Notes: generated by a model not told the origin, from the sequence alone. A DNA stretch of 64,000 nucleotides from Verrucomicrobiia bacterium (GCA_026646655.1 JAPKHT010000005.1:23956-87955); one strand, 5' to 3'. Shown: positions 14,910 to 61,668, counted from the stretch's first letter. Numbers and translations: made by a program.

Positions 14910-15062
14910 GCTCGAAAATAGCCGCAGCGCCTCCCGCAACCGAACGCGTAAGCGTTTGGCCGCCAATGCCTGACTCGAAAATTCGTAGCCACGGTCGCCA
15001 GACCGTGGACCCGGGGTTGAGTCGAACGATCTCCGGCAACCGCCGGACCAGATGGGCTACAC
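14910..15062 (+). repeat. Dispersed repeat family A, copy 3: two tandem units (forward), the second divergent
   Basis: First unit: ctcgaaaatagccgcagcgcctcccgcaaccgaacgcgtaagcgtttggccgccaatgcctga. Second unit: ctcgaaaattcgtagccacggtcgccagaccgtggac...gggctacactttggctc. Confidence 0.75.
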
Positions 15063-20672: not shown

Positions 20673-22235
20673 ATGGCGACGCGAATAAGACGGTTTGGTG
20701 GCGCGGTGTGCGCGTGGCTCCTGTGCCTGCCCGGGGCCGCCTGGGATGCGCAGGCGGCGGCGGGGAAGGCGGAGTTTCCCGAGGCGTACCGGATCGCCGT
20801 GGAGTTCAGCGAGTTTCTGCGGACGGATTCTGAGCGGGAGGCGAAGTACAAGGAGCGCATCGCGATCCGGTTGGCCGAGGATGGTTTCTTCAGTCAGGCG
20901 GTCGACCTGCTGGGGGGCGTGTCGATGAGCGAATGGAGGCGGCCGCAGGGCATGGCCGGGGTCGCGGCCATCGCCGCGCAGGCGGGAGAGATGGATCTGG
21001 CGCGGGAGCTGACCGGGCGTGCGTCGGCCGAGATCGAACTGCATGGCGACTGGCGGCGTGCCCGCGTGGCGGCGGAGGTGGTGGCGGCCCTCGGGGAGCA
21101 AGGGCGATTCGAGGAGGCGCGACCGCTGTGGGCGACCCTGGAGGGACACGATGGCGAACGGGACTACGCGGCCGGTCGGCTTTGCGCGGCGGCGGCGCGC
21201 CTGAATCGCAGCGACGCATGGGGGGAGCTTTCGGGGGGTGACGGGGCAGGGAAGAGTTCGGGACTCGTGACCTCGGAGGCGAACGCCCTGGTCAATGCGG
21301 CGGCATGGTGCCAGACCCGGGGCGATGCCGGGCGGGCGAAGGAATTTGCGGCACGCGCGCGGGGACTGGCGGAAGGCTTGCTCGCATGGGATGGCTCCGG
21401 GTTGATGGCGGAGGTGGCGACCCAGCTGCGCATGTCCGGGCTCCAGGACGATGCGCGGGCGATGCTCGACGAGGCCGAAACGGTGGCCCTGGCGCTGCCC
21501 GATGGGGTGGCGTGGAAGGCGCAAAATCTCGTGCGGGTCGCGGACGCGCTGCTCGGATTCGGAGATCGCGACCGGGCCGGCGCCCTGTTGGAGGTTGCGG
21601 CCAGACAGCCGGCCCTCCTCCAGCCTCTGGAACGCGGCGAGAGCGCGGCGGCCGTGGCGTACGGGTATCAGCGGCTCCATGGGGGGGACGAGGCCGCCCG
21701 GCGCTGGCTCGCGGCGGCCGAGGTGGCGCTGAAGGATGTGACACACCACCGGGTGCGGAGCATGAGCGTGATCGATACCTGCCTGGCCATGGGCAAGGCG
21801 GGTGTCGCGCCATCGGAATCCGTGAGGGCCTGCCTCGGGCAGGTGCGGGCGATCGTGGAGCGGGACGTGGCCGCGTGGGAGAAGGAGTTTGGGCCCCCGA
21901 AGAAGATCCTGCCGCCCGGGGTCCCGACAACGCGTGGCCACGGTCGCCGTGCCGTGGACGCACCCGCGGGACCATCTGGCCAGAAACTTCGAAGTTCCAT
22001 GCACCACGACGCGTTTCACAACAAACACCTAAACCGTTGGTTATGCGGATGCCGCCTTAAGGCGGCACTACGAGCCCAAGACCACGGGGGTGTTCGTAGT
22101 GCTGCCTTCAGGCAGCCCGGATCCACCAGGTGTCTCCGCATGCAGGAGGCGGGGCGTGCGCGCGCGGGCGGAGGAGTCGGTCCAGAATCACAATCGGCGC
22201 GGTGCTGCCACACGAATGTAACAGAGTGGGCCTAG
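20673..22235 (+). CDS. Hypothetical exported alpha-helical (HEAT/TPR-like) repeat protein; 3' end unreliable
   Basis: Signal peptide MATRIRRFGGAVCAWLLCLPGAAWDAQA and Ala/Leu-rich helical repeats. The frame stays open through the repeat-B element at 22021-22140, and the last ~80 codons look non-coding (Cys/His/Arg junk). Confidence 0.5.
   Translation: MATRIRRFGGAVCAWLLCLPGAAWDAQAAAGKAEFPEAYRIAVEFSEFLRTDSEREAKYKERIAIRLAEDGFFSQAVDLLGGVSMSEWRRPQGMAGVAAIAAQAGEMDLARELTGRASAEIELHGDWRRARVAAEVVAALGEQGRFEEARPLWATLEGHDGERDYAAGRLCAAAARLNRSDAWGELSGGDGAGKSSGLVTSEANALVNAAAWCQTRGDAGRAKEFAARARGLAEGLLAWDGSGLMAEVATQLRMSGLQDDARAMLDEAETVALALPDGVAWKAQNLVRVADALLGFGDRDRAGALLEVAARQPALLQPLERGESAAAVAYGYQRLHGGDEAARRWLAAAEVALKDVTHHRVRSMSVIDTCLAMGKAGVAPSESVRACLGQVRAIVERDVAAWEKEFGPPKKILPPGVPTTRGHGRRAVDAPAGPSGQKLRSSMHHDAFHNKHLNRWLCGCRLKAALRAQDHGGVRSAAFRQPGSTRCLRMQEAGRARAGGGVGPESQSARCCHTNVTEWA
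22021..22140 (+). repeat. Structured repeat family B, copy 1 (double hairpin: ccgccTTAAggcgg, cactacgag...ttcgtagtg, ctgccTTCAggcag)
   Basis: About 85% identical to 45625-45745 over the core gccgccttaaggcggcactacgagcccaagaccacgggggtgttcgtagtgctgccttcaggcag. Confidence 0.75.
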
Positions 22236-30871: not shown

Positions 30872-30918
30872 CGCAGTGTCGCAGACGTCATGCGCGTCGC
30901 GGCGGGCACCACCGGGAC

Positions 30919-31006
30919 AGAAAATGCAGCCGAGGCCGTGAGGCCTTGGCGGCCAAACGCTTACGCGTTCGGCTACGGGAGGCGATGCGGCATTTTCGGG
31001 TCAGCC
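30919..31006 (-). repeat. Dispersed repeat family A, copy 4 (reverse)
   Basis: Its reverse complement (gctgacccgaaaatgccgcatcgcctcccgtagccgaacgcgtaagcgtttggccgccaaggcctcacggcctcggctgcattttc) is near-identical to copy 2. Confidence 0.85.
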
Positions 31007-45352: not shown

Positions 45353-45465
45353 CGCAGTTCGACCGATAGCGCGGGCCGCCGGATCTGGCAACTCCCGATG
45401 CCGGTCAGAAACCGGAATCTGCGCCCCCCAGGGTCGCTCCGATCCCCTTCGATATCCGGGGGTGA

Positions 45466-45552
45466 CTCAAAAATTACCGCGTCGCTTCCCGTAGCCGAAC
45501 GCGTGAGCGTTTGGGCGCCAATCGCCCGAGGCGATCGGCCACATTTTCCCAA
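45466..45552 (+). repeat. Dispersed repeat family A, copy 6 (forward)
   Basis: ctcaaaaattaccgcgtcgcttcccgtagccgaacgcgtgagcgtttgggcgccaatcgcccgaggcgatcggccacattttccc. Confidence 0.85.
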
Positions 45553-45624
45553 GCCGGTGGTCCGGCGGTTGCCGGATGGGATCTAACCAGAAACTTCAAA
45601 GTTGGGGACACTTCGATGCGTGTC

Positions 45625-45745
45625 ACAACATACACGGAATCAGCAGCTTATTCGGACACCGCCTGAAGGCGGCACTACGAGCACACGACCACGGGAATGT
45701 TCGTAGTGGTGCCTTCAGGCACTCCGCGACCCACCAGAGGTTTCC
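45625..45745 (+). repeat. Structured repeat family B, copy 2
   Basis: caccgcctgaaggcggcactacgagcacacgaccacgggaatgttcgtagtggtgccttcaggcac, with the same double-hairpin architecture as 22021-22140. Confidence 0.75.
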
Positions 45746-45807: not shown

Positions 45808-45836
45808 AAAAAAAAGCGGCCGCCGAAGCGGCCGCC
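45808..45836 (-). terminator. Rho-independent terminator (minus strand): GCGGCCGC-ttcg-GCGGCCGC stem followed by U8
   Basis: The plus strand reads aaaaaaaa gcggccgccgaagcggccgcc. On the minus strand this is the hairpin followed by TTTTTTTT, about 360 nt downstream of the ECF S-component stop. Confidence 0.7.
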
Positions 45837-46192
45837 CTCTGCAGGGCGGCCAGCGTGTGCTTGGGATCAGGTGCTCCTACTCCGGGTTTTGGGATAGGGG
45901 GGGAAAGAACGAGAGTAGGAGGTGCCAACCGCGCCTGCAAATCTTCAAAATTTGCAACTCTGCCCCATATGGAACGATTTCCATTTGGAGGCCGAGTGTT
46001 CAAAGAACTGTTGAATCAATACATCGATTCGGTGCCTCGCGCAACCGAAAAGGGGACATTTGTAAACTTTATGAAAAAAATTAATGTCATGACGAGGTGT
46101 GGTTTCGATGGCATGCGGATTGCTGTCTTGGGATTTGGGGGGCCGACATCGGGGCAACGCAAGACGATATTATTCAAATAGTTATAGAAATG

Positions 46193-46801
46193 TCAGCCAT
46201 GGGGTGGTTGTCGGTGGCGGTGGAGGATGCGGAGGAGGGGTTGTGCGGCGGTGGCGATGAGGAGTGCGTTGGTGGCGGCGTGTGCGGCATCGAAGGGGAG
46301 GGAGGCGGCATTGACGGCGATCCAAGTGGCGGCGTTGAGTGGGTGGACGAAGGCGATCCAGTGCCAGAGGTTCTGGAGCCAGCCGAAGAGGAAGCCCCAG
46401 GCGATGCCGAGGGTGACGAGGAGTCCGGTGGGGGGATTTGGCCAGAGGCGTCCGATCCAGCCGAGGCTGAGTCCACAGATGCCCCAACCTGCGGCCTGCC
46501 AGAGAGTCCAGAGTCCTTGGCCGAGGAAGAAGTTCGAGCCGATGGTGGCGATGACACCGGTCATGAATCCGGCCGAGGGGCCGAGGGCGAGGCCGGCGAG
46601 CATGACGAGGAAGGTGGTGGGCTGGACGGAGGGCACGACGGCGGTGAGGACGCGGCCTAGGGCGGCGGTGGCCGCGAGCACGGCGATGAGGGGAACGTGC
46701 TGCAGGGGCCGGCGCCCGCGCTCGAACCAGAAGAGGCCCGCAGCGATGAGCGCGAGGGCCATGGCGGGCAGGAGCCAGGCGGGTGCGAAGGGGCCAGTCA
46801 T
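46193..46801 (-). CDS. ECF transporter substrate-specific (S) component; possibly cobalamin-specific CbrT-like
   Basis: About 200 aa with six predicted TM helices, ATGA-overlapped with the ecfA stop. Substrate is inferred from the upstream riboswitch only. Confidence 0.6.
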   Translation of the reverse strand: MTGPFAPAWLLPAMALALIAAGLFWFERGRRPLQHVPLIAVLAATAALGRVLTAVVPSVQPTTFLVMLAGLALGPSAGFMTGVIATIGSNFFLGQGLWTLWQAAGWGICGLSLGWIGRLWPNPPTGLLVTLGIAWGFLFGWLQNLWHWIAFVHPLNAATWIAVNAASLPFDAAHAATNALLIATAAQPLLRILHRHRQPPHG

Positions 46802-48465
46802 GAGGGGCCCTGGGTTTCGGTGAGGCGGGGGGCGAAGGCGAGGTGGGCTTGCCGTCGGGTGAGGATGCCGCGGCAATCGGACCGGCCGCGGAGGGCGCGT
46901 CCCCATGCCGTGGAGAAAAAGAGGCCTTGCTCGAGGATATCGCCGGGGGGGCCGGAGGCGACGATTTCGCCATCGAACATGAGGGCGGCGCGGTGGGCGA
47001 TGTCGGCGGCGAACTCGAAATCCTGGGTCGCCATGATGATCGTGCGGCGGCGACCGGCGACGAGGTCGGCGAGGAGGTTCGAGAGGGCCGCGCGCATGCG
47101 TTCGCTGAGCCCCCGGGTGGGTTCATCGAGGAGGAGGAGGTCGGGGTCGGTGGCCAGGGTGGATGCCAGGGCGACGCGGCGTCGCTCGCCGGCGCTCAGG
47201 TCGTGGGGGTGGCGGTGCGCGAGGGGCGCGACATGGAGCCGATCCAGCAGCGGCTGTAACTCGGCTGATCCATCGAGGTTGGCCAGGGTTCTAGAAAAAG
47301 CGATCTCCTCGGCGACCGTCTCGTGGGCGAGATGATGGTCGGGGTTCTGAGAGAGGTAGCCGATGCGGCGGAGGCGTTCAGCGGGTGGGATGACTGCCGG
47401 GTCTTTGCCGAAGACCGAGACTTCGCCGGAATTCGGGCGGAGGAGGCCCAGTAGCATTGCGAGGAGGGTGCTCTTACCCGCGCCGTTGCCGCCGAGGAGG
47501 CATAAGATCTCTCCTCGCGAGACGTCGATATCGATGCCGCGGAGGGCCTCGCGATCGTGGCCGTAGGCGAAGTGGGCGCCGCGGGCGCGGATGACCGTCT
47601 TCTGGGGCGAGGGAGGGGTTGGAGGGGCCGAGGGGCAGGGAGCGGGGATGGGAGGCAGGGAGGCGATGGCGGCGCGGGCCTCGGGAACTGTGAGGGGCAG
47701 GAGCGTGCGTCCGTCGGGGCCGGGGAACGGGATGGCCGTCTGCGGGATGTTGGCGCCGTGATCGAGCGCCCACCGGGCATAGTCGCGGGGGGGCAGGTCA
47801 CAGGCCACCCTGCCGTGATCGAGGGCGACGACGCGGTTCGCCCATGACAGGCAACCATCGAGGTGCTGTTCGATGAGAATGAGGGTGAGGCCGAGATCCT
47901 GATTCAGGCGCCTCAAAACCTCAAAGACCTCGGCGGCGGCCATCGGATCGAGCTGGGAGGTGGGTTCATCCAAGACCAGGGCGGTTTGGGCCATGGCGAG
48001 AATCGCCCCGATCACCGTCTTCTGCTTTTCGCCGCCCGAGAGTTCATGGCAGTGCCGGTCGAGCAGGGGCTCGAGGCCGAGCCAGCCGGTGACCTCGGCC
48101 ATCGAGCGGCGCATCTCACCCCTGGGAATCCCTAGGTTCTCCATCCCGGTCGCGATCTCGCGGCGCACGGTCGATGCGATGATCTGGCGCTCGGGGTCCT
48201 GAAAGACCATGCCCACGTGGCGGCGCAGGCCGGTGCCCCAGTCGGCGAGGGCGCGATCGGAGAACCGGACCGAGCCGGATAGTTCGCCCCCCTGGAACTC
48301 GGGGATGAGGCCACCCATCACGCGGGCGAGGGTGGACTTGCCGCTGCCGGATTCGCCGGTGACGAGCAGGCATTGGCCGCGCGCCACGCGAAGATCGATG
48401 CGGTCCAGGGCGGGGGAATCGGAGCCCGGGTACGAGAACGAGACGTTATCGAGTTCGAAGATCAT
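46798..48465 (-). CDS. ecfA: ECF transporter ATPase, fused tandem EcfA-EcfA' (two ABC nucleotide-binding domains)
   Basis: Two Walker A motifs (GESGSGKST and GGNGAGKST), two LSGGE/LSAGE signatures, and two Walker B motifs (LVLDEPTS and LLLDEPTR). Confidence 0.9.
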   Translation of the reverse strand: MIFELDNVSFSYPGSDSPALDRIDLRVARGQCLLVTGESGSGKSTLARVMGGLIPEFQGGELSGSVRFSDRALADWGTGLRRHVGMVFQDPERQIIASTVRREIATGMENLGIPRGEMRRSMAEVTGWLGLEPLLDRHCHELSGGEKQKTVIGAILAMAQTALVLDEPTSQLDPMAAAEVFEVLRRLNQDLGLTLILIEQHLDGCLSWANRVVALDHGRVACDLPPRDYARWALDHGANIPQTAIPFPGPDGRTLLPLTVPEARAAIASLPPIPAPCPSAPPTPPSPQKTVIRARGAHFAYGHDREALRGIDIDVSRGEILCLLGGNGAGKSTLLAMLLGLLRPNSGEVSVFGKDPAVIPPAERLRRIGYLSQNPDHHLAHETVAEEIAFSRTLANLDGSAELQPLLDRLHVAPLAHRHPHDLSAGERRRVALASTLATDPDLLLLDEPTRGLSERMRAALSNLLADLVAGRRRTIIMATQDFEFAADIAHRAALMFDGEIVASGPPGDILEQGLFFSTAWGRALRGRSDCRGILTRRQAHLAFAPRLTETQGPS

Positions 48466-48540
48466 GGATCAAGAATGTCGCTGATCGCCGGGACGAAAAA
48501 GTGTGGCCCATCTGATCCGGCAGCTGCCGGACCACCGGGG

Positions 48541-48630
48541 GTGAAAGTGTAGCCGATCGCCTCGGGCGATTGGCGGCCAAACGCTCACGCGTTCGGCTAC
48601 GGGACGCGATGCGGCCATTTTCGAGTCAGC
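48541..48630 (-). repeat. Dispersed repeat family A, copy 7 (reverse)
   Basis: gtgaaagtgtagccgatcgcctcgggcgattggcggccaaacgctcacgcgttcggctacgggacgcgatgcggccattttcgagtcagc. Confidence 0.85.
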
Positions 48631-49534
48631 ACGCACGGGCATGGCGGCGGATGAGGGTTGGCGCGCGCCAGGCGAACCAGGCGAGGGCGGCGGTGGCGAC
48701 CGGGATGGCGGCGAGGGCCAGGGAGATGGCCGGGCGGGTTGGGGTGAGCCTCGGGTAGAAGTGGAACTGTGCCGTTCCCGAGATGGCCAAGGCGAGGGCG
48801 GCGGTGGCCAGCAGGGCGCCGGCGGCCGTTGCCACCCGGTCGCGGGGCGTCAGGTGATCGGGGTCGATGAAGGATCGTGGCCCCGAGCCAAAACCCCGGG
48901 CGGCGAGCGCCTCGGCGAGATCCCTGGCGCCCTCGAGTGCCGAGGCGAGGAGGGTGCGCCACAAGAGGCCCGCGGCCGCGGCGCGCGACCGGAGGGTGCC
49001 CGCCCGCAGGTCGATGCCTTGCGACCAGAGGATCGCCTGAATCTGGCGTGCTTCTCGGAGCAATGATGGGATGAGTTGAATCACGATGCCCAAGGTCACG
49101 GCCGTGCGGGGCGCCGCCTTGCCGAGCAGGCCGAGGGAGCGATCCGTGTCACTGAGCCGCGCCCAGAGGGCGAATGTCGCCATGACGGTGGCGAGTTTCG
49201 CGCCGGCGATCGCGCCAAACGCGACAGCCTCTAGAGTGATCGCGCTCGCGCCGGGCCACCAGGCTGGGAGCGGTGACAGGATCGTGGAACCGGCCCCCGA
49301 GAAGAAGGCGTTGATCGCAGCCATCATGAGGGCCGGGGGCAGTGCGAACAGCGCCGTTTGGCGAAACTGGCCATCGCGGGCCAGCCAAGCGAAACTGGCG
49401 AGCGTGGCCCCGACCACGGCGCCGGGTTGATCCACGGCCAGAAGCCAGAGCAGGAACCCCATCGCAAATGTGGCGCCGGCGAGCGGATGGATGGGTGGGG
49501 CACTCCGCCGGGGGCATTCGAGGGGTCTGATCAT
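48626..49534 (-). CDS. ecfT: ECF transporter transmembrane (T) component EcfT/CbiQ family
   Basis: 302 aa, multi-TM, with the C-terminal EcfT coupling motifs ...LLREARQIQAILWSQGIDLRAGTL...ARGF. Confidence 0.8.
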   Translation of the reverse strand: MIRPLECPRRSAPPIHPLAGATFAMGFLLWLLAVDQPGAVVGATLASFAWLARDGQFRQTALFALPPALMMAAINAFFSGAGSTILSPLPAWWPGASAITLEAVAFGAIAGAKLATVMATFALWARLSDTDRSLGLLGKAAPRTAVTLGIVIQLIPSLLREARQIQAILWSQGIDLRAGTLRSRAAAAGLLWRTLLASALEGARDLAEALAARGFGSGPRSFIDPDHLTPRDRVATAAGALLATAALALAISGTAQFHFYPRLTPTRPAISLALAAIPVATAALAWFAWRAPTLIRRHARAC

Positions 49535-50580
49535 GGCGGGATCGCCCGGGGGCGGATGGGGAGCGGTAGCGTGACGCGTCGCCCGTCCACGATCATGAGG
49601 CCAGCGGCGCCCGCAAGGGATTCGGGCGAGCGCGCGAGCAGGCCTGCGGTCGCCCGCGTTTCAACATCGCCCGTTCCCGTGACGAGCCAGAGGCACGCCC
49701 CTCGCCGAGCGCCGGTCTTGGCGGCCAGGATGGCGCCGCCGGGCGCAGGGGGTCCAGGCGCCTCGCCGTGCCAATCGCGACCCGACGCGCCGCGGTCCGA
49801 GAACTCGACCAGCAGCCCGGTCTTTGCCGCATGGCGGTGGATGTCGGCGACCGCGGGATGGGCGACCAACGCGCCCCAGGGGCCGAGCAGCAGCGGGAAG
49901 GACGTCTCCACATCGATCGTTACGGAGGGGCCGAAAGGGACTTGCACGACATCGCGGACGCCGAGTTCCTTCAACCTGGCGGCGATCGCGCTGGCCTCCG
50001 CCTCAAAACCCGCGGCGTGGAGGAGCCGCGTGGGCGCCGTCTTGCCGCCGTGGCCATGCGCGAAAGGCTCTGGGAACGCGCCGACGAGGGCCCCGACCTG
50101 AAAGCCCTCCGACCATGGATGGTAATCCCACCAGATGTGATCGCCGGACGCCGGACGATATTGCGCGGCGCCCACCGGGGACAGCACCCCGTTGATAAAA
50201 TAGAACCAGTCCTCGTCGCGTCCCTCGAGAGTGCCCGAGCGCAGGTCGCCGATGGCGGTCACGAAGCCGGCCCGCGTTGCCTCGATGGGGATCGACGCGC
50301 GGAGCACATCGACGACGCTGCCGCCGGGGCGTTGGGCGCTCTGGACGATGGGCTCCGCCCCGAACGCGCGCGTGACGCGGAGCGTGACGTCCGCCGGGGG
50401 CGAGGCGGGGAGCGGCATGGGCGAAAGGCCGAGGACAATGGCCGTGGCAGCGAGAATGAGCGACCGGCGCGGCGGCCCGCTTGGCCACGCATTGCCCGCC
50501 CTTCGCCGGTCAAAGGGGGCCCGCGTCGCCACGGTCTGGCGAACGTGGCCACGGATTTTCGAGTCAACCGCCTGGTGCAT
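49531..50580 (-). CDS. Membrane-anchored periplasmic protein with a DUF4430-like segment (possible B12-binding, transcobalamin-beta-like)
   Basis: N-terminal TM or signal anchor LILAATAIVLGLSPMPLPA. The segment DWFYFINGVLSPVGAAQYRPASGDHIWWDYHPW resembles the DUF4430 W-Y-VNG...GD-I-W-Y motif, recalled from memory. ATGA-coupled to ecfT. Confidence 0.55.
   Translation of the reverse strand: MHQAVDSKIRGHVRQTVATRAPFDRRRAGNAWPSGPPRRSLILAATAIVLGLSPMPLPASPPADVTLRVTRAFGAEPIVQSAQRPGGSVVDVLRASIPIEATRAGFVTAIGDLRSGTLEGRDEDWFYFINGVLSPVGAAQYRPASGDHIWWDYHPWSEGFQVGALVGAFPEPFAHGHGGKTAPTRLLHAAGFEAEASAIAARLKELGVRDVVQVPFGPSVTIDVETSFPLLLGPWGALVAHPAVADIHRHAAKTGLLVEFSDRGASGRDWHGEAPGPPAPGGAILAAKTGARRGACLWLVTGTGDVETRATAGLLARSPESLAGAAGLMIVDGRRVTLPLPIRPRAIPP
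50521..50580 (-). repeat. Partial repeat family A unit (reverse) overlapping the 5' end of the 49531-50580 CDS
   Basis: The reverse complement ...ttgactcgaaaatccgtggccacgttcgccagaccgtggcg is about 90% identical to the second unit of copy 3 (14963-15012). Confidence 0.55.
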
Positions 50581-50584
50581 GGCT

Positions 50585-52837
50585 TCAGTAATTCACGGCC
50601 GTGACGGCATCGAGGTCGAAGCCGGAGTTGCCCGCCGTCCGGAGCGCGGCACCGGTAAAATTCGTGTGGCGCACCGCGTCGCCGTTGCCGTCGATGATCC
50701 AGTTGTCGCCGGTGGATTGGATCTTGACGAATCGGGCCCACGCGAGGCCGACGGTCGCGAGATCAAAGCTGTCGCCGCCAGACTCGGACGGGTTGGTCGG
50801 GTCGGCATTTGGCAGGACCGGGTTTATCCCCGCGAAGCCGCTCCCGTAGCAGTAGGGGTGCTGCAAGTTCAGGTTGCCCGCGTCGTCGTATCGCGGCGAG
50901 AAATCGATGGGGAATCGTTTCCAGGAGGAACCGTCCTGGCTGACGTAGACCACGGCGGGTTCCATGAATCGGTTGAGGTGATCCCCGCCGATGTAGAAGG
51001 CGTTTTCGAAGACCGTGAAGTCATTGCCGGGGCCATCGACGATCACGTTGTCGGTGAACTCGACGACGATCTCGCCGCCGTAGGGTGCCGAGCCACTTCC
51101 ATTGATGGCGGCCCCCAGCGAGACGACGTCCTTAGATCCATTTGCGTAGCCGAGTCCGTTGGGGGGGCCAAGTACGATGCCGGGCACGCTTGCGGCGTTG
51201 AACCGGTCGGCCCCGGCCAAGGGCGTGAAATAGGCCGCGTCGGCGTGCGGGTCGGCCGCTCCGGCTGCGGCGCGGCCCTTGGTAAAGGGCAGGATAGTCG
51301 CAGAGCCATAGGATGTCGCGTCGAGGGCGCTGTATTCCCCGTCCGGGGTGAAGGCGAAGGCCGCGTAGTGGTAGGTCGTCCCATCGGCGAGCGCCTGATC
51401 AATGGTCGTCGTGCCGACGCCCTGATAGACGATGTCGCCCTCGTCGGGGGTGGCCGGAATGGCGGCGGTGCTGCGCACCACGAGGGTCTCCGCGAACTCG
51501 GGCTCATCGGGATTGTTCCATGTTAGGACCGCCTTGCCCGCGCTGGGGTAGACCCTCAGGTCGGTGACGGGGCCAATGGGCGCCTCGGTGATCTCCAAAT
51601 AGAAATCCCCGTAGGCGATCTGTGGTTCGGGGGCGGTGGCATCCCAGACGGCGACGGAGAGCGGGCCGAAGGAGCCTATGGTTTCGGGGGTACCGGAGAA
51701 GACGCCGTCCGCGAACGTGAGGCCCGGGGGGATTTCGCCGGCGATCAGTTCCCATCGGTAGGGGGTCGTGCCGCCTTCCGCATCGAGTGGTATTTCGGCG
51801 GGTTTGCCCTGTTGGGCGGGATCGAGCTGTTGCGCGGAGACGATGCGTAGCGCCCTCGAGACGACCTTGAGGACGAGATCTTTCGATGCCTGGGTCCCCT
51901 GTGCGTCGGTCACGGTGACCGACAGCGGATAACTCTTGAACTCGCCGGTCGGGTTGCCCGAAATGGCGCCGGCGGAGGATATCGAGACGCCCGGGGGCAG
52001 TTCGCCGCTGACCGACCACTCGTATGTGGGGACGCCACCCGCCGCGGCGAGCGCGATCGCAAGCGGGTTGCCGACGCTGGCGTCGGGGAGGGACTCCGTC
52101 ACGATGCGCAGTTGATCCTCCGGTAGGATGACCAGGAGGTACTCGGCCTCGTCGCTGTTGGAGTCGGCGTCGCTGACCCGGACGCGGAGTGAATCGCTGA
52201 AGAGTTGCAGCGGGGTCCCGTAGAAGAGGCCGCGGGCGGTGTCGAATTGGAGGCCGAGGGGGAGTGTGCCCGAGGTGCTCCACGAATAGGGGGGCGTGCC
52301 CCCCGTGGCGAGGATCTGCGCGTTGAATGCCTTGGAGAGGGTGCCCTCCGGAAGCGATCCGGTCGTGATGAGCAACTGGACGAGCACGTTATCGCCCGCC
52401 GCGCCCACCCCGCTGGCCCGGGACAGGCCGCGATGGCCGCCGGGACCCGGGACCAATTCTGCCGGCAGCCACTTGCCATCTCGCAGCACCATGCCGCTGC
52501 GGCGGATCGAGGCGATGTCTTCGGCGGACGCGGGCGTCCCGCGCTGCGATTCGCAAGGTGCCTCCGCATGGCCGGCGCCATTGCGCCAGTCCTCGTCATC
52601 CCAGGGCGCCTTGTCCCCGGACCTCTTTCCCTTCCACCACGACCGGAGGAAACCGGGGTCGTCATCGGTGCCGATGATGGCACCGTCGAGGGCGAAGCGG
52701 TCGAGCGCGATACCGCCCCCGACAAGGCCGGCCATGGCGAGTGCGATGGCGGTCGTGAGCCCGGCGATGGCGTTCGGCTCCAGCGCCCGGACCGCGGCCA
52801 TCCCACGGCAAAGCCAGCCCAGTATCCCGCGGATCAT
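50585..52837 (-). CDS. Large membrane-anchored surface protein with tandem putative-Ig (He_PIG-type) repeats and a C-terminal domain of unknown function
   Basis: 750 aa: N-terminal TM anchor, about five repeats of the LPxGLxF...GxxxGTP type (for example GTPPYSWSTSGTLPLGLQFDTARGLFYGTP), then a C-terminal beta-rich domain. The stop is 4 nt from the next start. Confidence 0.65.
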   Translation of the reverse strand: MIRGILGWLCRGMAAVRALEPNAIAGLTTAIALAMAGLVGGGIALDRFALDGAIIGTDDDPGFLRSWWKGKRSGDKAPWDDEDWRNGAGHAEAPCESQRGTPASAEDIASIRRSGMVLRDGKWLPAELVPGPGGHRGLSRASGVGAAGDNVLVQLLITTGSLPEGTLSKAFNAQILATGGTPPYSWSTSGTLPLGLQFDTARGLFYGTPLQLFSDSLRVRVSDADSNSDEAEYLLVILPEDQLRIVTESLPDASVGNPLAIALAAAGGVPTYEWSVSGELPPGVSISSAGAISGNPTGEFKSYPLSVTVTDAQGTQASKDLVLKVVSRALRIVSAQQLDPAQQGKPAEIPLDAEGGTTPYRWELIAGEIPPGLTFADGVFSGTPETIGSFGPLSVAVWDATAPEPQIAYGDFYLEITEAPIGPVTDLRVYPSAGKAVLTWNNPDEPEFAETLVVRSTAAIPATPDEGDIVYQGVGTTTIDQALADGTTYHYAAFAFTPDGEYSALDATSYGSATILPFTKGRAAAGAADPHADAAYFTPLAGADRFNAASVPGIVLGPPNGLGYANGSKDVVSLGAAINGSGSAPYGGEIVVEFTDNVIVDGPGNDFTVFENAFYIGGDHLNRFMEPAVVYVSQDGSSWKRFPIDFSPRYDDAGNLNLQHPYCYGSGFAGINPVLPNADPTNPSESGGDSFDLATVGLAWARFVKIQSTGDNWIIDGNGDAVRHTNFTGAALRTAGNSGFDLDAVTAVNY

Positions 52838-54237
52838 GGTTGGATGAGCTCCGCGCGGACCCGAATGAACCGCGCCGTGCCGCCACCGGGGTCGGCGACT
52901 GTCACGCGGACCTTCTGGCCCGCTAGGGATTCGGTAATCTGTCCGGTGCCGGTGGTGGGGGTGCCGGCGGCGCTCCGCGCGATCTCCTGCCAGTCCCCGG
53001 GCTGCAGGGTGCCGGAAACCTCAACGACATAGTCGAGATCCCGATTCATGGGGTCACGGGTAAAGCGGATGCTCAGGCGGCCTCCGGAGACAGTCGGCTC
53101 GATGGCATCATGGGCGTCCGGTCGTCTCGGGTTCCCGGAGAAGGCATACTCCAATCCGTTGGGTTGGGCGTCGCCATCGGGATTTGCGAAGAATCCCGAG
53201 ACGCTGTCGTCAAGTTGTTCCGCCGGAGTGAAGAGGGTGGCGTTCCAGGAGGCACGGGAATTGGGCACCCCGACCGCGATGATCGCGTTGAAAGCCCCGA
53301 AGTCGGTCAGGAGCGCGTAGAGGGTGCCGGCGTCGTACGAGGATGGCTCAAACGGCCCGCTCCCGGGCCTAAACTGCATGGAGCTGACCACCGCAAACCC
53401 GCCCGTGATGGAACCGAAAAGGGATGGGTGACCCGATGTCGTGTCGAAGGCGTAGAGGCTGCCGGAGAAGTCGGGAAAGAAGATATCGGCATCGGAGTCT
53501 GCGGCCAGGTAGCTGGAGCCGGCGAGATTGGTGCCGACATGGACGCCGGCGGATGGCTGGAGCGCCACGCCGAGTGCGATCGCGTTGGAAACCTGGGCCC
53601 GCGTGAAGCGGAAGAGGTTATTCTGGAAACTGGCGGTGGTCTGCGCGACGTAGAGGTCGCCGTTGGTGGCGAAGGCAAGGCCGCCGGAATAGGTGGGCAT
53701 CTCGATGACGCGATTGGTCCCCGTTCCAGAGACCAGAAACACCGCGTTGGAATTGGGATTTCCGGTGAAGAAGATGCGCCCGGCGGCGTCGAGCGCGGAG
53801 GCGTAGTTCTGAAGGAGCAAGTTAGTCGTGAGGCCCGAGCCGTCGAGTCCGATGGACATGACGCGGTTGGTCTCGCTGGTGGCGTCGGGGTACGCACCCG
53901 ACTGTCCGAAGTAGACCCGGCTGCCCGCCGTCTCCACGAAACTGCCGAACGCCGTGTCTGGGAATATGTACAGGGTATTGAACGCATGGCCGATGGGGTC
54001 CCAGCGGACCAGCGATGAGGCCGCGCTCCCATAGCCGCCGCTTCCAAGGATCATGACGATGGAACCATCGTCGGCGACGTCGAAGCCGCCGATGCCGGCG
54101 TTGGTGGCAAAGATGTTCTGGACGGCGTAGCCCGCCGGGGCTGCGAAGGCCTGGGCGCGGGCCGCCTGCGGCGCGAGGGCGCCCATGGCGAGGGTCATTG
54201 CTGCCAGTCCGAATCCGCGGGCGGGAAAGCCATTCAT
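52834..54237 (-). CDS. Secreted beta-propeller-like protein (possible BtuG-like B12-capture protein)
   Basis: Signal peptide MNGFPARGFGLAAMTLAMGALAPQAARAQA, a perfect GGAGGA SD, and blade-like repeats (DGSIVMILGSGGYG..., NGDLYVAQTT...). ATGA-coupled to the next gene. The BtuG analogy is inference only. Confidence 0.55.
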   Translation of the reverse strand: MNGFPARGFGLAAMTLAMGALAPQAARAQAFAAPAGYAVQNIFATNAGIGGFDVADDGSIVMILGSGGYGSAASSLVRWDPIGHAFNTLYIFPDTAFGSFVETAGSRVYFGQSGAYPDATSETNRVMSIGLDGSGLTTNLLLQNYASALDAAGRIFFTGNPNSNAVFLVSGTGTNRVIEMPTYSGGLAFATNGDLYVAQTTASFQNNLFRFTRAQVSNAIALGVALQPSAGVHVGTNLAGSSYLAADSDADIFFPDFSGSLYAFDTTSGHPSLFGSITGGFAVVSSMQFRPGSGPFEPSSYDAGTLYALLTDFGAFNAIIAVGVPNSRASWNATLFTPAEQLDDSVSGFFANPDGDAQPNGLEYAFSGNPRRPDAHDAIEPTVSGGRLSIRFTRDPMNRDLDYVVEVSGTLQPGDWQEIARSAAGTPTTGTGQITESLAGQKVRVTVADPGGGTARFIRVRAELIQP

Positions 54238-54240
54238 GTG

Positions 54241-54272
54241 AATCCTCCAGTCTTTTGAGAACCTGGAGGCCG
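54241..54272 (-). promoter_or_regulatory. SD-sequestering hairpin (anti-SD CCUCCAGG / SD CUGGAGG) at the 3' end of the riboswitch
   Basis: The plus strand reads aatcctccag tcttttgagaa cctggagg. On the mRNA this is cctccagg...ctggagga immediately before the AUG at 54237. Confidence 0.55.
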
Positions 54273-54515
54273 GGCAGTGCGCCCGATCCCGCGGTCCTCA
54301 TTCTTCATTGTGGCGATGAAGTTTTATGCGCCCACCGCACCCGCGGCGGGCGAATGAGAGGGAGCGGCGCAGATATTCGGACTTCGGGCCTCGAACCTCG
54401 CTCCCGCCTTCACCGCCGGACTTGGACCGGAGACTGGCATCTTGGGAGTCTGTAACCCGTTACCGTAGCGCAACTGTTCCCGATTCTCACGGGATTCCCT
54501 GGAGCCGCACCCATC
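54250..54515 (-). promoter_or_regulatory. Cobalamin (AdoCbl) riboswitch with SD-sequestering expression platform
   Basis: The minus-strand RNA reads GGGUGCGGCUCCAGGGAAUCCCGUGAGAAUCGGGAACAGUUGCGCUACGGUAAC...GCACUGCCCGGCCUCCAGG...CUGGAGGAUUCACAUG. It matches the Rfam RF00174 core (GGUGC..AGGGAA..GGUGnAAnUCC..ACnGUAA) and a B12-box-like GCACUGCC. The anti-SD CCUCCAGG pairs with the SD CUGGAGG of the downstream gene. Confidence 0.55.
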
Positions 54516-57995: not shown

Positions 57996-59195
57996 TCAAA
58001 AGCAAAAAGTCGAGATCCCCGCCACCGCGGCGATCAGCAGCGCATAGGTGATCGGAAACGCCCACCGGCAGCGGTGATCGATGCGGTGGCCGCGCGCCGA
58101 CTCGCCACGCTTTTCGCAGGCGCCGACCCAGAGGTTGACCGCGACGGTGGCGCACATCAACAGGAAACTGACGTTGAGGAAGCCGTGGATGAATGTCACG
58201 TACGCGATATCCGGGAGGATGCCGCCGATGACCATCTGGTAGGCGACGACCGTCAGGATGCCGACGAAGGACACGCTGACGCGGTCTCCGGCGGCGGACC
58301 GGTCCATCCAGAAGACCGACCAGGAGAGCATGACGATCACCACCAGCGGCAGCATGATCAGTCGCACCACGAAGAACGACTGCCTGCGCACATCGATCGC
58401 GAGGACGAATGCGGAGGACGCGCCCTCGGTGCCGGCGTAGGGGGCCTCGAGTTTTCGTGTCGACGAGGTAACGTCGCGGAGATCCCACTGGGGAACGCGG
58501 AGTTGCGGCGGGGGCTGCTCCCGGTCATCCTTTGCCACCTCGAGCGCCACGTCGCCCGACCCGAAACCGAGGACCTCGAAGACCGCCTCGAGCCGCTGGC
58601 GATCGAACGGATAGCGGCGCAGGTTGAGGTCCGACTTGGCGACGGCGTTAAATGTCTCTATCTGGGTGCACGTCCCATCCGGGCGGACGCGCAGCAGGAT
58701 CGCGTCCCGGTCGCACGTGCCGGAAACATTGGCGAGCACCACCTGGGGATACCAGGAGGGTGAGATCTCATCGCACTGATACGAGCCCTGATAGATTTTT
58801 TCGGCGACGCCCTCTTTGGCGGGGTCGAAGGCCTGCCGCGGGTCCTTCCAGACAAGTGTCAGGACGCCGGTGAACTCGAAGGTCTCCGCCTCGTCGTCGA
58901 TCCCGTTGATTTCCCAAAGGTGGAACGAGGCGCGGACGACCACAGGACGGTCGCCAGGAGGCGGCGTCAGCGCGCCGGGTGGGACGGATTGTGCCGGCGC
59001 GGCGCAGGGCGCCGCGATCACCGATGCCGCGACGAGCGACAGGGTCGGCTTGAAAAATTCCGTGGCCGAACGCGCCAGGCGTTTGGCGCGAGTCACCAGC
59101 GCCGTCGGCCAAACGCTTGCGCGTTCGGCTACATTTTCCCGGCGCGCCGCGTCCGGCGCGAGGCCCGGCCCACGCTGTTCAGACACCCGGGCCAT
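57996..59195 (-). CDS. Pentameric ligand-gated ion channel (Cys-loop receptor family, prokaryotic pLGIC); start uncertain (ATG 59195 or GTG 59096)
   Basis: Extracellular ligand-binding-domain motifs (PVVVRASFHLWEINGIDDEAETFEFTGVLTLVWKDPR) followed by four TM helices (M1: FFVVRLIMLPLVVIVMLSWSVFWM). The N-terminal about 45 codons are encoded by repeat-A copy 8. Confidence 0.75.
   Translation of the reverse strand: MARVSEQRGPGLAPDAARRENVAERASVWPTALVTRAKRLARSATEFFKPTLSLVAASVIAAPCAAPAQSVPPGALTPPPGDRPVVVRASFHLWEINGIDDEAETFEFTGVLTLVWKDPRQAFDPAKEGVAEKIYQGSYQCDEISPSWYPQVVLANVSGTCDRDAILLRVRPDGTCTQIETFNAVAKSDLNLRRYPFDRQRLEAVFEVLGFGSGDVALEVAKDDREQPPPQLRVPQWDLRDVTSSTRKLEAPYAGTEGASSAFVLAIDVRRQSFFVVRLIMLPLVVIVMLSWSVFWMDRSAAGDRVSVSFVGILTVVAYQMVIGGILPDIAYVTFIHGFLNVSFLLMCATVAVNLWVGACEKRGESARGHRIDHRCRWAFPITYALLIAAVAGISTFCF
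59052..59140 (+). repeat. Dispersed repeat family A, copy 8 (forward, two palindrome cores)
   Basis: gaaaaattccgtggccgaacgcgccaggcgtttggcgcgagtcaccagcgccgtcggccaaacgcttgcgcgttcggctacattttccc. Lies inside the 5' end of the pLGIC ORF. Confidence 0.8.
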
Positions 59196-59199
59196 CAGT

Positions 59200-61668
59200 T
59201 CACTGTCGGCCCATCGCGGCATTGATGGCGTCCTCCGGATTGACGAGATGGTCCGCGTTGTTCGGGTCATCGGCGATGGAGAGCTGGACGCCGCTGACGT
59301 CGCCGTTGAAACCATTGCCGACGGGGCCGTAATCGGGGGAGACGGGGGCGCCGGTATCCTCACCGACGTCGCAGCCGTCATCGGCGGAGAAGACGATGGC
59401 CTGTGTCATCGGGATCTCGCCCTGACCGACTGGCTTGCCATCGACGAACAGGGTGGCCTTGCCGCCCTTGCCGAGGCCGCCGCCGGCGTAGGCGAACTCC
59501 ATGCGCACCTGGCGCCGGCCCGGCGGCAGGGCATCCTTCGACTCGACGAAGAAATGCTTCACGCCGGCCAGGTTGTAGCAGTACTTCAATTTTCCGCCCT
59601 TGGCGTAGAGGCTCCAGCCGCCGATGTTCGCGCCCTGGGCGATGATCACCCCTTCGGCGCCAGATGGGGGCACATCGATCTCCGCGGTGATCGAGTGGGA
59701 TTTGTTCTTGATGCTGAGCACGCAATTCTCGGAGAGGCGGCCCATGCCGCCGAAGAGGAGCTGGGTCTTGCCCCTGACGAGGATCGGGCGTCCGGCGGTA
59801 TCCGGATCCATCTTCTCGGTGGTCCTGTCGTCGATGGGCAGCACCTTGTGGCGGGTCGCCTCGATCAGCCAGAGCCGCTGCAGGTCGCGGAGTTTCTCGG
59901 GCATCTGTTTCGACAGGTCATTCGCCTGGCTCCAGTCCTTATCCGAGTAGAGTTCCCAGACGTCGTCGTCGAGTGGGACGGTCTTCTGTCCCATGATAAT
60001 CCACGGTGTGCGGTGCTTCGTGACGGCGGTCCATCCCTTGTGGTAGATGCCGCGGTTGCCGAACATCTCGAAGTACTGGGTCTCGTGGCGCTCGGGGGCA
60101 TCTGCGCCGTTGAATGAGTACAGCATGCTGACGCCTTCGATGGGATCCTGCTGGATGCCGTTCACGAACTCGGGCTGCGGGAGTCCCGCCGCCTCGAGGA
60201 TGGTGGGCGCGACATCGATGACGTGGGCGAACTGCGATCGGATTTCGCCCCGGGCCTTGATTCCCTTGGGCCAGTGGATGACGGTGCCATTGCGGGTGCC
60301 GCCCCAGTGGGAGGCGACCTGCTTGGTCCACTGGTAGGGGGTGTTGAGCGCGTGCGCCCAGCCGACGGCATAGTGGTTGTAGGATTCCGGCCCGCCGAGC
60401 TTGTCGATGCGGGCCATGAGGAACTCGGGGGTCTCGAGGGCCGCCAGGCCATTGAAGTTGGCCATCTCGTTATACGCGCCGTTCAAGGTGCCCTCGGCCG
60501 AGGCGCCGTTGTCCCCGACGATGTAATACACGAGGGTGTCGTCGAGGATGCCGAGTTTCTCGAGGGAATCGATGATGCGGCCGACGTGGTGATCGACGTA
60601 TTCCATGTACCCCGCGTAGACTTCCATCTGGCGGCGCAGCACGGGTTTGAGGGCCTCGGGCATCTCGTCCCAGGATGGGATTTCCTTGTGGCGGGCGGTG
60701 AGCTGGCAATCGGCGGGAATGACGCCCAGCTTCTTCTGTCGGGCGAAGATCTCCTCGCGGAGCTTGTCATAGCCCTGGTCGAACTTGCCCTTGTACTTGT
60801 CAGCCCACTCCTTCGGCACATGGTGCGGCGCGTGGGTGGCGCCGGGGGCGAAATAGATGAAGAAGGGCTTGTCGGGCGTGAGGGCCTTCTGCTGGCCGAT
60901 CCATTTGAGGGCCTTGTCCGTCATGTCGGCCACGAGATGATAGCCCTGTTCGGGCGTTTTCTTGAGTTCGACGGGGGTGGTGCCCTCGTAGAGCGTGGGG
61001 TACCACTGGTTGGCCTCGCCGCCGATGAACCCGTAGAAGTACTCGAAGCCGCCGCCGCCGGTGGGCCAGGCATCGAACGGCCCGGCCGGGCTCGTCTGCC
61101 AGACCGGGACCTCGTGGCATTTGCCAAACTGCGCGGTCGCATAGCCGTTGAGCGTGAGCGTGCGCGCGAGCGGGGACATGGTGTTGGGCAGGACCGAGCA
61201 GTAGCCCGGCGCGCCGGTGGCGACCTCCGTGATGCCACCCATGCCCGCCGAGTGATGATTGCGGCCGGTGAGCAGCGCCTGGCGCGTGGGCGAGCAGAGG
61301 GCCGTGGTGTGGAACCGATTGTACTTGAGACCGCCCGCGGCGAGTCTCTCGACGGTGGGAGTCTGGCAGGGGCCGCCGAAGGCGCTGGAGGAACCGAAGC
61401 CGGCGTCATCGATGAGGATGACCAGGACGTTCGGGGCGCCCTTTGGCGGGCGGAGTTGTTGGATAGGGGGGAACTTGCTGTCCGGGTCCCTGGCATCGTA
61501 GGTGATCAGGGCGGGCCGGGTCGTATTCGGCATGGGCAGGTGGGAGCGGTGCTTGATTTCAAGCCCGGCGGTGGAGGCGGCCTTTTCCTGTGCCATGGCA
61601 GGGAAGGCGAGGGTTGCGATCGCGGCGACGAAAATTGCGGCGATTGAGGTCCGGAGGGTGTTTTTCAT
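59200..61668 (-). CDS. Arylsulfatase (formylglycine-dependent, Cys-type) with about 300-aa C-terminal extension
   Basis: Signal peptide MKNTLRTSIAAIFVAAIATLAFPAMAQE. Sulfatase signature CSPTRQALLTGR plus GKCHE. 822 aa. The stop is 4 nt upstream of the pLGIC ATG. Confidence 0.9.
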   Translation of the reverse strand: MKNTLRTSIAAIFVAAIATLAFPAMAQEKAASTAGLEIKHRSHLPMPNTTRPALITYDARDPDSKFPPIQQLRPPKGAPNVLVILIDDAGFGSSSAFGGPCQTPTVERLAAGGLKYNRFHTTALCSPTRQALLTGRNHHSAGMGGITEVATGAPGYCSVLPNTMSPLARTLTLNGYATAQFGKCHEVPVWQTSPAGPFDAWPTGGGGFEYFYGFIGGEANQWYPTLYEGTTPVELKKTPEQGYHLVADMTDKALKWIGQQKALTPDKPFFIYFAPGATHAPHHVPKEWADKYKGKFDQGYDKLREEIFARQKKLGVIPADCQLTARHKEIPSWDEMPEALKPVLRRQMEVYAGYMEYVDHHVGRIIDSLEKLGILDDTLVYYIVGDNGASAEGTLNGAYNEMANFNGLAALETPEFLMARIDKLGGPESYNHYAVGWAHALNTPYQWTKQVASHWGGTRNGTVIHWPKGIKARGEIRSQFAHVIDVAPTILEAAGLPQPEFVNGIQQDPIEGVSMLYSFNGADAPERHETQYFEMFGNRGIYHKGWTAVTKHRTPWIIMGQKTVPLDDDVWELYSDKDWSQANDLSKQMPEKLRDLQRLWLIEATRHKVLPIDDRTTEKMDPDTAGRPILVRGKTQLLFGGMGRLSENCVLSIKNKSHSITAEIDVPPSGAEGVIIAQGANIGGWSLYAKGGKLKYCYNLAGVKHFFVESKDALPPGRRQVRMEFAYAGGGLGKGGKATLFVDGKPVGQGEIPMTQAIVFSADDGCDVGEDTGAPVSPDYGPVGNGFNGDVSGVQLSIADDPNNADHLVNPEDAINAAMGRQ

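Follow-up and report, generated by a model that had tools for sequence, protein, structure and literature searches.

A cobalamin riboswitch-controlled operon combining a predicted ECF-CbrT-type importer with BtuH-like and transcobalamin-like proteins in a verrucomicrobial bacterium

Vitamin B12 is a growth-limiting cofactor traded in most microbial communities, and its uptake is well understood only for the BtuB-BtuFCD pathway, the BtuBG relay of Bacteroides and, in lactobacilli, a transporter of energy-coupling factor (ECF) type, ECF-CbrT. How, then, could a bacterium with an outer membrane acquire B12 through a pump of the ECF type? The question is raised by a locus in a 64,000-nucleotide (64-kb) stretch of DNA from a Verrucomicrobiia bacterium (GCA_026646655.1, JAPKHT010000005.1:23956-87955), hereafter the window, in which an earlier note made from the sequence had pointed to a riboswitch-controlled operon as a candidate B12 scavenging system. 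We find a cobalamin riboswitch followed by six genes, named P1 to P6 in the order of transcription, and consider it quite probable that they form an operon through which a verrucomicrobial diderm acquires cobamide (vitamin B12) and which cobamide represses, with an ECF importer (P4-P6) and three exported helper proteins (P1-P3). What is established, and what this reading builds on, are the identity of the RNA and protein families, the folds, the conservation of synteny and the association with riboswitches. Loci of other genomes are cited below by L numbers.

The first indication of a B12-related function comes from the leader. The cobalamin riboswitch RF00174 is the sole gathering-level Rfam match in the window (Table 1), the conserved core motifs quoted in the earlier note are found in the sequence, and the same family passes in Rfam scans at the equivalent position in the relatives L002, L006 and L007. 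The aptamer extends 53 nt past position 54515, where the locus had been thought to end. Downstream of it the Shine-Dalgarno (SD) sequence GGAGG (54244-54248) stands 6 nt ahead of the P1 ATG (54237), and the anti-SD/SD hairpin that had been proposed is present: CCUCCAG (54263-54269) pairs with CUGGAGG (54244-54250) over 7 bp, thereby covering the SD. Competing helices (CUCAUUC/GAAUGAG and UGAGGACC/GGUUCUCA) lie in the same expression platform, the 140-nt fold of which beats 200 of 200 shuffles (z = -3.4) with alternative pairings visible. Compared with L002, L006 and L007, the platform shows 89% column identity and the SD hairpin is retained. Since no U-tract occurs between the aptamer and the first start codon, control of P1 is probably translational.

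Every element described lies on the minus strand, as first reported, but the operon holds six open reading frames (ORFs) and not the seven genes first counted, given that EcfA-EcfA' is a single ORF, that the 160-nt gap in the operon is a repeat, and that the 355 nt past cbrT are without a convincing ORF. The tight junctions claimed for the whole operon (0-4 nt, or ATGA overlaps) are found at four places, as 4-nt overlaps or a 4-nt gap, but not between ecfT and ecfAA', where the 160-nt gap lies. In the relative L002 there is no gap at this junction and the two genes overlap. The proteins of the source assembly carry the accessions MCC6356364-69.

All three parts of the transporter named in the earlier note, an EcfT, a fused EcfA-EcfA' and an S component of about 200 aa, have candidates in P4-P6. 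P5 is the fused EcfA-EcfA' ATPase, with PF00005 matched in two stretches (E 1.7e-57), and it passes the ECF_ATPase_1 model TIGR04520 with 329.6 bits, the cutoff being 315. The match of P4 to Pfam CbiQ is weak (E 0.35); a phmmer comparison with the PDB returned the EcfT chains 4hzu_T and 4huq_T (E 3e-4) in the coupling-helix region, three neighbouring ORFs of BtuH-like loci match CbiQ (best E 9.5e-12), and P4 keeps its place between the genes for the DUF4430 protein and the ATPase. We identify P4 as a predicted divergent EcfT, the transmembrane coupling component. P6, a 202-aa protein labelled 'ECF transporter S component' at NCBI, has as its sole significant PDB match 6fnp_A, the CbrT of Lactobacillus delbrueckii (E 1.7e-14 with the single sequence). 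A profile of five P6 orthologues aligns with CbrT over the full length at E 5e-22, the next S component being at E 0.18, and PF07155 is matched at 27.9 bits (cutoff 26.7). CbrT is its only solved relative; P6 groups with it and with no other solved S component, and not with a non-B12 family, a placement for which the earlier note had allowed. The 4-nt overlap of its gene with the end of P5 puts the S component in the same operon as the ECF module. By homology P6 is a CbrT-type S component with cobalamin or cobinamide as its predicted substrate, both of which CbrT has been experimentally demonstrated to transport (PMC5997447).

A different substrate, either another tetrapyrrole such as heme or a metal such as cobalt through a CbiMNQO-like route, has to be considered here. 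The lsa1836-1840 operon of L. sakei has the same general architecture (S component, fused ATPases, EcfT and a transcobalamin-beta-like protein) and was linked experimentally to heme uptake (bioRxiv 10.1101/864751), and 'cobalt transporter ATP-binding subunit' models give good scores with P5 too. However, a cobalamin riboswitch controls the window operon and each related locus tested, P6 matches CbrT and not CbiM/NikM or any other solved S component, and the partner protein P2 is a homologue of BtuH (see below), while cobinamide as an extra substrate fits with B12 acquisition (PMC5997447). We regard another substrate as highly improbable.

If the operon serves to acquire cobamide, which of its exported proteins could bind the ligand? 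P2, a hypothetical protein according to its NCBI label, had been described as a 750-aa membrane-anchored Ig-repeat protein, and it does have an N-terminal anchor helix and three He_PIG domains (three stretches, Pfam E 3.6e-23). For its last 290 residues there is no Pfam match even at E 10; among NCBIfam models the C-terminal region reaches the LIC_13355 lipoprotein family below threshold, and it retrieves more than 4,205 proteins, mostly without Pfam annotation. A profile of 43 relatives of this domain gave exactly two matches among 177,635 PDB sequences, 8BLW chain B (E 0.007) and 7BIZ (E 0.053), which are BtuG1 and BtuH2 with bound B12, respectively (PMC8941943, PMC10404256). The match to 8BLW_B falls inside the ~250-residue C-terminal BtuH domain of BtuG1. 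The AlphaFold model of the P2 domain has predicted local distance difference test (pLDDT) values >90 throughout, and Foldseek returned 8BLW_B as the sole match below 1e-3, with Foldseek and the profile hidden Markov model (HMM) picking the same two entries. The HMM alignment places Gln333, Asn399 and Phe401 of BtuH2 at the 7BIZ chain positions 233, 299 and 301 (offset 100). Asn399, a phosphate contact, and Phe401, which packs against the 5,6-dimethylbenzimidazole (DMB) lower ligand, align to a motif of the family, F-E-N-x-F, whose F-E-N is invariant. There is no conservation of Gln333. Given that Ig-like domains are followed by a BtuH-type domain, P2 has the architecture of BtuH, and sequence profiles and the predicted fold make it a remote member of the BtuH fold family with a C-terminal putative B12 binder. 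The earlier note had seen a likeness to BtuG/BtuH-type proteins in concept; for P2 the relationship is stronger than claimed, being structural and, remotely, one of sequence, but P1 is not BtuG-like.

The DUF4430-like segment reported for P3 proved to be a DUF4430 domain (PF14478, E 2.7e-13, 50.6 bits against 23.8, residues 88-154, nt 50119-50319). P3, which had been called membrane-anchored, and its orthologues carry ordinary Sec signal peptides. The domain is followed by a conserved VVGAFPEPF motif and a ~190-aa C-terminal domain, for which neither a Pfam or NCBIfam match (E 10) nor a PDB sequence match was found. DUF4430 is the C-terminal beta-domain of transcobalamin-type proteins (PMC4350170) and corresponds to the transcobalamin-like SLBB clade (PMC1796856). 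A DUF4430 gene lies directly upstream of EcfT in the window and in L018, L020, L027, L034, L094 and L095; in L094 and L095 the homologues are distant, have lipobox-like N-termini and lie between RF00174 and the CbiQ/EcfT gene. From its domain homology and by analogy with such systems, P3 is likely a secreted transcobalamin-beta-like protein and a putative cobalamin binder.

P1 had been called a secreted beta-propeller-like protein, which agrees with a Sec signal peptide and a six-bladed beta-propeller (residues about 30-323), with a beta-sandwich at the C-terminus (about 379-464) and an NPDGD..N.LEYAF motif ahead of it. Neither Pfam nor NCBIfam gave a match even at E 10. The possibility that P1 is a BtuG, which acts as a lid on BtuB, was rejected: a test for a seven-bladed propeller with specific similarity to BtuG was negative. 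A word-indexed homologue search with P1 yielded 7 proteins and an exhaustive one 1,033 matches, mostly to the C-terminal module alone. This module of ~140 residues (about 330-467; window 52834-53240, minus strand), which consists of a helix region with the NPDGD..N.LEYAF motif and the ~90-aa beta-sandwich and has no Pfam coverage, stands at the extreme C-terminus of hundreds of unrelated proteins of exported type (leucine-rich repeat (LRR), Big_2/BNR/CBM, SASA), and is a candidate envelope-anchoring, secretion or sorting domain.

With an HMM of the P1 family, a propeller gene was found directly upstream of the BtuH-like gene in L021, L023, L025, L026, L028, L030-L033, L035 and L037-L039 (E 1e-49 to 1e-137), and the propeller occurs within a 536-aa protein encoded directly downstream of the BtuH-like gene in L009, L014-L017 and L019 (E 1e-17 to 1e-20). 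In Verrucomicrobiota P1 is a habitual genomic partner of BtuH-like proteins. The 536-aa protein is secreted and combines an N-terminal P1-type propeller with five tandem C-terminal repeats of ~45 aa (motif PGWIARxLDGNRLLAQAGDGGA) for which there is no Pfam family; it always comes directly after the BtuH-like gene (L009 9035-10648, L014 3125-4735, L016 4440-6050, L017 10016-11626, L019 9940-11547). One of these loci, L014, is an 8.4-kb contig of a Verrucomicrobiota metagenome-assembled genome that contains three cobalamin riboswitches (209-406 and 2834-3001 on the plus strand, 7910-8098 on the minus strand), which precede the BtuH-like gene, the 536-aa propeller gene after it, and ABC-type genes on the opposite strand.

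The fold of P1 also suggests another reading of the exported proteins, in which the ECF module and P3 import cobamide and P1, possibly also P2, are co-regulated envelope proteins with another job, P1 as a corrinoid-modifying or other enzyme and P2 as an adhesin or stalk. The nearest structural neighbours of P1 include lactonases, pyrroloquinoline quinone (PQQ)-dependent dehydrogenases and NHL domains, none of them B12-binding; the P2 domain has the fold of a CBM32-like jellyroll, for which carbohydrates are the usual ligands; and in Bacteroides the propeller BtuK2 and the lipoprotein BtuL are riboswitch-controlled and yet bind no cobamide (PMC13616437). Against a place of P1 outside the B12 pathway stands the finding that in 18 loci or more its gene strictly adjoins a BtuH-like gene governed by the same riboswitch, which argues for a role within that pathway even if P1 does not bind. 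We consider this division of labour rather unlikely, and continue with P1-P3 as helpers in B12 acquisition.

Where would these proteins act? P2 and nearly all of its verrucomicrobial orthologues have a basic N-terminus, a hydrophobic helix of ~20 residues and a long linker, and no lipobox or cleavage motif was found in their N-termini. Short stand-alone members of the BtuH-like family carry cleavable signal peptides. The N-terminus of P2 indicates a signal anchor, which argues for a tether in the cytoplasmic membrane, and a position of P2 and P3 at the inner membrane or in the periplasm is at least as plausible as one at the cell surface. The earlier note had envisaged capture at the outer layer. 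In its fullest form, modelled on Bacteroides, P1, P2 and possibly P3 would seize B12 on the outer face of the outer membrane and replace or feed an outer-membrane transporter, with the ECF importer completing uptake. The Bacteroides homologue of P2, BtuH, is exposed at the cell surface (PMC8941943), the C-terminal module of P1 is common to large LRR, Big_2, BNR and CBM proteins that are typically secreted or at the surface, and a diderm needs an outer-membrane route for a 1.3-kDa ligand, none being encoded nearby. However, P2 and its verrucomicrobial orthologues have the signal anchor with no signal-peptidase or lipobox site; the orthologues of P3 bear simple Sec signal peptides and nothing that would anchor them; and there is no linked surface-export machinery or lipoprotein signal. 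Surface capture is thus not the best-supported reading, and we hold it to be unlikely.

The earlier note had also looked to conserved synteny with ECF genes and cobalamin riboswitches, and this is kept both in close relatives and in other phyla; none of the three outcomes that the note had named as refuting was observed. L002 (assembly GCA_964651705.1) has the identical order of six genes, the riboswitch and a P1 that is 69% identical, and shares with the window a xylose-isomerase-like gene upstream and gatCAB downstream. Phmmer searches of six-frame ORFs found the block P2-P3-EcfT-EcfAA'-CbrT in L018 (Planctomycetia), L020 and L034 (Auribacterota) and L027 (Omnitrophota), and partially in L022 (Chlamydiota), where it stops at the contig end. 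In L018, L027 and L034 the E-values of P3 were 1e-32 to 1e-51, those of P5 1e-119 to 1e-139 and those of P6 1e-44 to 1e-52; the L020 contig ends within P6 (E 2e-22). A riboswitch is present in each ECF-block locus that has upstream sequence. The P1-P2 pair occurs in at least 18 further loci across Verrucomicrobiota, and in L007 and L008 the riboswitch is followed by two P1-like genes and a BtuH-like gene with no ECF genes nearby. The window operon looks like the junction of two modules that share P2: a pair of propeller and BtuH-like protein common in Verrucomicrobiota, and a block of BtuH-like protein, DUF4430 protein and ECF transporter common in the Planctomycetes-Verrucomicrobia-Chlamydiae (PVC) group.

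Beyond this group, a survey with one genome per species gave 80 BtuH-like loci, in Verrucomicrobiota, Kiritimatiellia, Planctomycetota, Chlamydiota, Omnitrophota, Auribacterota, Thermodesulfobacteriota, Myxococcota, Sumerlaeota, Binatia, WOR-3 and others, and no description of this wider family was found in the literature searched. Riboswitches were surveyed by direct Rfam scans, since seven aptamers, when aligned with MAFFT, matched up poorly in the 3' half. The sample comprised 22 loci, 19 of them with usable upstream DNA, and RF00174 lies upstream on the same strand in 17 of these 19 testable loci outside the clade of the window (3/3, 8/8 and 6/8 in the three batches; three more loci of the 8/8 batch start inside the gene and were excluded). 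The neighbours of the BtuH-like gene vary: BtuB-type TonB-dependent receptors flank it in L024, L029, L036 and about 17 other loci, mostly of Myxococcota and 'delta' lineages, FecCD, ABC and Peripla_BP_2 genes in some loci, and ECF genes in the PVC group. In L010/L011 (8803-9453) and L012/L013 (8822-9451), from Hydrogenedentota and another lineage, a stand-alone BtuH-like gene behind a riboswitch is followed by a gene for a ~210-aa prepilin-type N_methyl protein (PF07963, with a faint SBP_bac_10 match). A nickel link was also considered for the family, as LarA, LarB and LarC genes lie near it in two unrelated loci (L009 13433-14719 and L010 9514-11531; Lar_N, AIRC/LarB and Ni_insertion/LarC). 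It is probably a coincidence, since it does not recur and the riboswitch is of the cobalamin type.

Taken together, these data suggest the following course of events. When cobamide is high in the cell, the leader riboswitch would bind it and the ribosome-binding site of the first gene, P1, would most likely be sequestered; when cobamide is scarce, all six proteins would be produced. P4 (EcfT), P5 (fused EcfA-A') and P6 (CbrT-type S component) would assemble into a dedicated ECF importer for the ATP-driven passage of cobalamin or cobinamide over the cytoplasmic membrane. P1-P3 are expected to act ahead of it, by binding B12 or handing it on. P2 would be held in the cytoplasmic membrane by its N-terminal signal anchor and carry the BtuH-type domain atop a linker and an Ig-like stalk. 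P3 would be a soluble periplasmic transcobalamin-beta-like protein and the protein most likely to deliver B12 directly to CbrT; in all lineages examined its gene immediately precedes those of the ECF module. The order of hand-off, as well as a passage of B12 across the outer membrane ahead of it, is what we infer. For P1, a secreted six-bladed propeller, binding, hand-off and anchoring in the envelope are all conceivable roles.

Several observations weigh against this picture. The sequence similarity to BtuH is marginal when taken alone (E 0.007 and 0.053), and the BtuH2 contacts His476, Tyr510, Trp511 and Trp577 lie outside the alignable stretch. A profile of the P3 family gave only noise against PDB sequences, with no transcobalamin or intrinsic factor, and the single sequence did no better. 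The propeller of P1 is a generic fold common to many enzymes, so that P1 could be catalytic and not a binder. In the minimum-free-energy fold of the platform the SD pairs with a partner other than the local hairpin, and the 160-nt repeat that separates ecfT from ecfAA' might interfere with co-expression. Finally, no TonB-dependent receptor was found in the 64-kb window at E up to 10, nor in the PVC-group loci, with an HMM built from the receptors of three related loci, which divergent receptors could escape; as no outer-membrane transporter is linked to the operon, the B12 pathway is incomplete for a diderm.

Table 1. Coordinates of the operon and associated features, counted from the first nucleotide of the window
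Feature	Position	Strand	Details
Cobalamin riboswitch aptamer, RF00174	54349-54568	-	cmscan 45.5 bits (gathering score 31.5), E 3.2e-8, model 1-189 of 189
Expression platform	54238-54348	-	SD-sequestering hairpin and competing helices
P1	52834-54237	-	ORF, 467 aa
P2	50585-52837	-	ORF, 750 aa
Putative B12-binding BtuH-type domain of P2	50588-51250	-	residues about 530-750
P3	49531-50580	-	ORF, 349 aa
P4	48626-49534	-	ORF, 302 aa
Dispersed repeat insertion (REP/MITE-like) between ecfT and ecfAA'	48466-48625	.	repeat families D1, D3, I2, I4, I6, I7
P5	46798-48465	-	ORF, 555 aa
P6	46193-46801	-	ORF, 202 aa
Conserved non-coding segment ending in intrinsic terminator	45808-45945	-	near-identity with L002

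Downstream of cbrT, a strong intrinsic terminator lies where one had been placed (45808-45837, against 45808-45836 as first given), in the form GGGCGGCCGC-UUCG-GCGGCCGC followed by U8, with a hairpin of -32.7 kcal/mol. Its role as the end of the operon is less certain, since it lies ~355 nt past the last stop codon and may belong to a separate small RNA. The ~140 nt that end in the terminator are almost identical in L002 (about 18160-18300), while the flanking proteins are 61-70% identical, and for this reason the segment may be a small RNA gene of its own between cbrT and gatC rather than a 3' untranslated region of the operon. Its features include a stem, CUCCUACUC/GAGUAGGAG, that encloses a C-rich loop (UUUCCCCCCCUAUCCC), as well as a candidate promoter, TTGCAG-17-TACTCT; no Rfam family reached the gathering score in a permissive scan, the best being Hrs13 with 25.9 against 52 bits.

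The repeat in the ecfT-ecfAA' gap has at least seven other copies in the window (45463-45548, 11236-11359, 14911-14991, 30882-30996, 9719-9799, 59061-59152 and 65-120). It is a dispersed intergenic repeat of ~60-115 nt that contains a hairpin of the CCGGCAGCTGCCGG type and is found in both orientations. Another repeat, 146 nt long, occurs at 45581-45726, just past the terminator, and at 21974-22119, the two copies being 79% identical. Elsewhere in the window, an ORF at 57996-59381 (minus strand) with Neur_chan_LBD and Neur_chan_memb domains is a homologue of bacterial pentameric ligand-gated ion channels.

To our knowledge, ECF transporters are described as operating without extracytoplasmic binding proteins. 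A broader proposal is that PVC diderms (Verrucomicrobiota, Planctomycetota, Omnitrophota, Auribacterota and probably Chlamydiota) may import cobamide without BtuB-BtuFCD, with a BtuH-type 'fishing rod' tethered in the inner membrane and a soluble transcobalamin-beta-like protein as the extracytoplasmic capture partners of an ECF transporter, joined in Verrucomicrobiota by a new family of six-bladed propellers. The BtuH-type domain, moreover, would not be a speciality of Bacteroidota and would belong to a large family of riboswitch-controlled B12 binders (more than 4,000 clusters, no Pfam model, at least ten diderm phyla) that is paired with TonB-dependent receptors, BtuCDF-like or ECF systems. 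We put this forward tentatively and consider it less likely than not. The locus unites two systems, a BtuH-type binder and a transcobalamin-like protein ahead of an ECF-CbrT pump, in bacteria with an outer membrane, and it sharpens two questions: by which route B12 crosses the outer membrane of PVC bacteria, and whether extracytoplasmic binding proteins can feed ECF transporters. It extends the BtuH fold far beyond Bacteroidota, its range in the literature searched, gives a testable function to more than 4,000 'hypothetical proteins' and indicates a new family of propellers that accompanies BtuH-like proteins. If these genes were better annotated, B12 auxotrophy and cross-feeding would be predicted more reliably from metagenomes.

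Taken singly, the components are all known in kind: the riboswitch, ECF-CbrT, BtuH, and the transcobalamin-like SLBB proteins in CbiO/CbiQ operons. The statement in the earlier note that the combination matches no described system was too strong. Secreted SLBB (DUF4430) proteins, some of them fused to Ig-fold or beta-propeller domains, were proposed in 2007 as B12 scavengers in CbiO/CbiQ-type operons (PMC1796856), lsa1836-1840 unites a transcobalamin-like protein with an ECF transporter (bioRxiv 10.1101/864751), and in 2022 a btuH homologue of a Firmicute was described beside a cobamide transporter resembling the ECF type (PMC8941943). Compared with the literature searched, what appears to be new is the union of BtuH-type protein, DUF4430 protein and ECF-CbrT in one conserved riboswitch-controlled block of diderm PVC bacteria, the inner-membrane-anchored form of a BtuH-like protein, the BtuH-like family's size and its spread over phyla, and the P1 propeller family as its regular partner.

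In regard to the transporter, the closest known system is ECF-CbrT of L. delbrueckii (6FNP; PMC5997447), with which the operon shares an S component homologous over the full length, a predicted EcfT with two ECF-type ATPase domains, and the predicted substrate. Unlike CbrT of L. delbrueckii, which shares a general ECF module, the transporter described here is dedicated (group I), encoded in one riboswitch-controlled operon with EcfA and EcfA' fused, and found in a diderm host together with three co-encoded exported accessory proteins.

P2 resembles the BtuH proteins of B. thetaiotaomicron (BtuH1, BtuH2 and the H-domain of BtuG1; 7BIZ, 8BLW; PMC8941943, PMC10404256) in having Ig-like domains at the N-terminus and a jellyroll at the C-terminus, in keeping the Asn399/Phe401 motif, in its riboswitch control, and in the adjacent beta-propeller gene, as in btuK1-btuK2-btuH1 or the BtuG-H fusion. 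Its sequence similarity is remote, however, and its Ig-like domains are of the He_PIG type, whereas those of BtuH2 are PKD-type (PMC8941943). BtuH is a surface lipoprotein paired with BtuB, whereas P2 has a signal anchor, no lipobox and an ECF partner. According to a 2026 review, BtuH homologues are predominantly found in Bacteroidota, with three in Firmicutes (PMC13616437), whereas the host of P2 belongs to the PVC group. The P1-P2 arrangement, a propeller gene beside a BtuH-type gene under a B12 riboswitch, resembles that of BtuG/BtuK in Bacteroides (PMC10404256, PMC13616437) and recalls btuK1-btuK2-btuH1 (PMC13616437), although the propellers are not demonstrably homologous.

Finally, the operon is like the SLBB CbiO/CbiQ operons (PMC1796856) and lsa1836-1840 in that a secreted DUF4430 gene lies directly upstream of the genes for EcfT, ATPase and S component, and like the former in the B12 scavenging predicted from context and in the co-occurrence of Ig-fold and beta-propeller proteins. 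The examples of 2007 came from Firmicutes and archaea (Clostridium, Moorella, Desulfotomaculum, Archaeoglobus, Methanosarcina). Unlike in those operons, no alpha/alpha-toroid (transcobalamin alpha-like) partner was detected here and P3 has a 190-aa C-terminal domain, and the transcobalamin-like protein is joined, in diderm PVC bacteria, to a BtuH-like protein and a new family of propellers.

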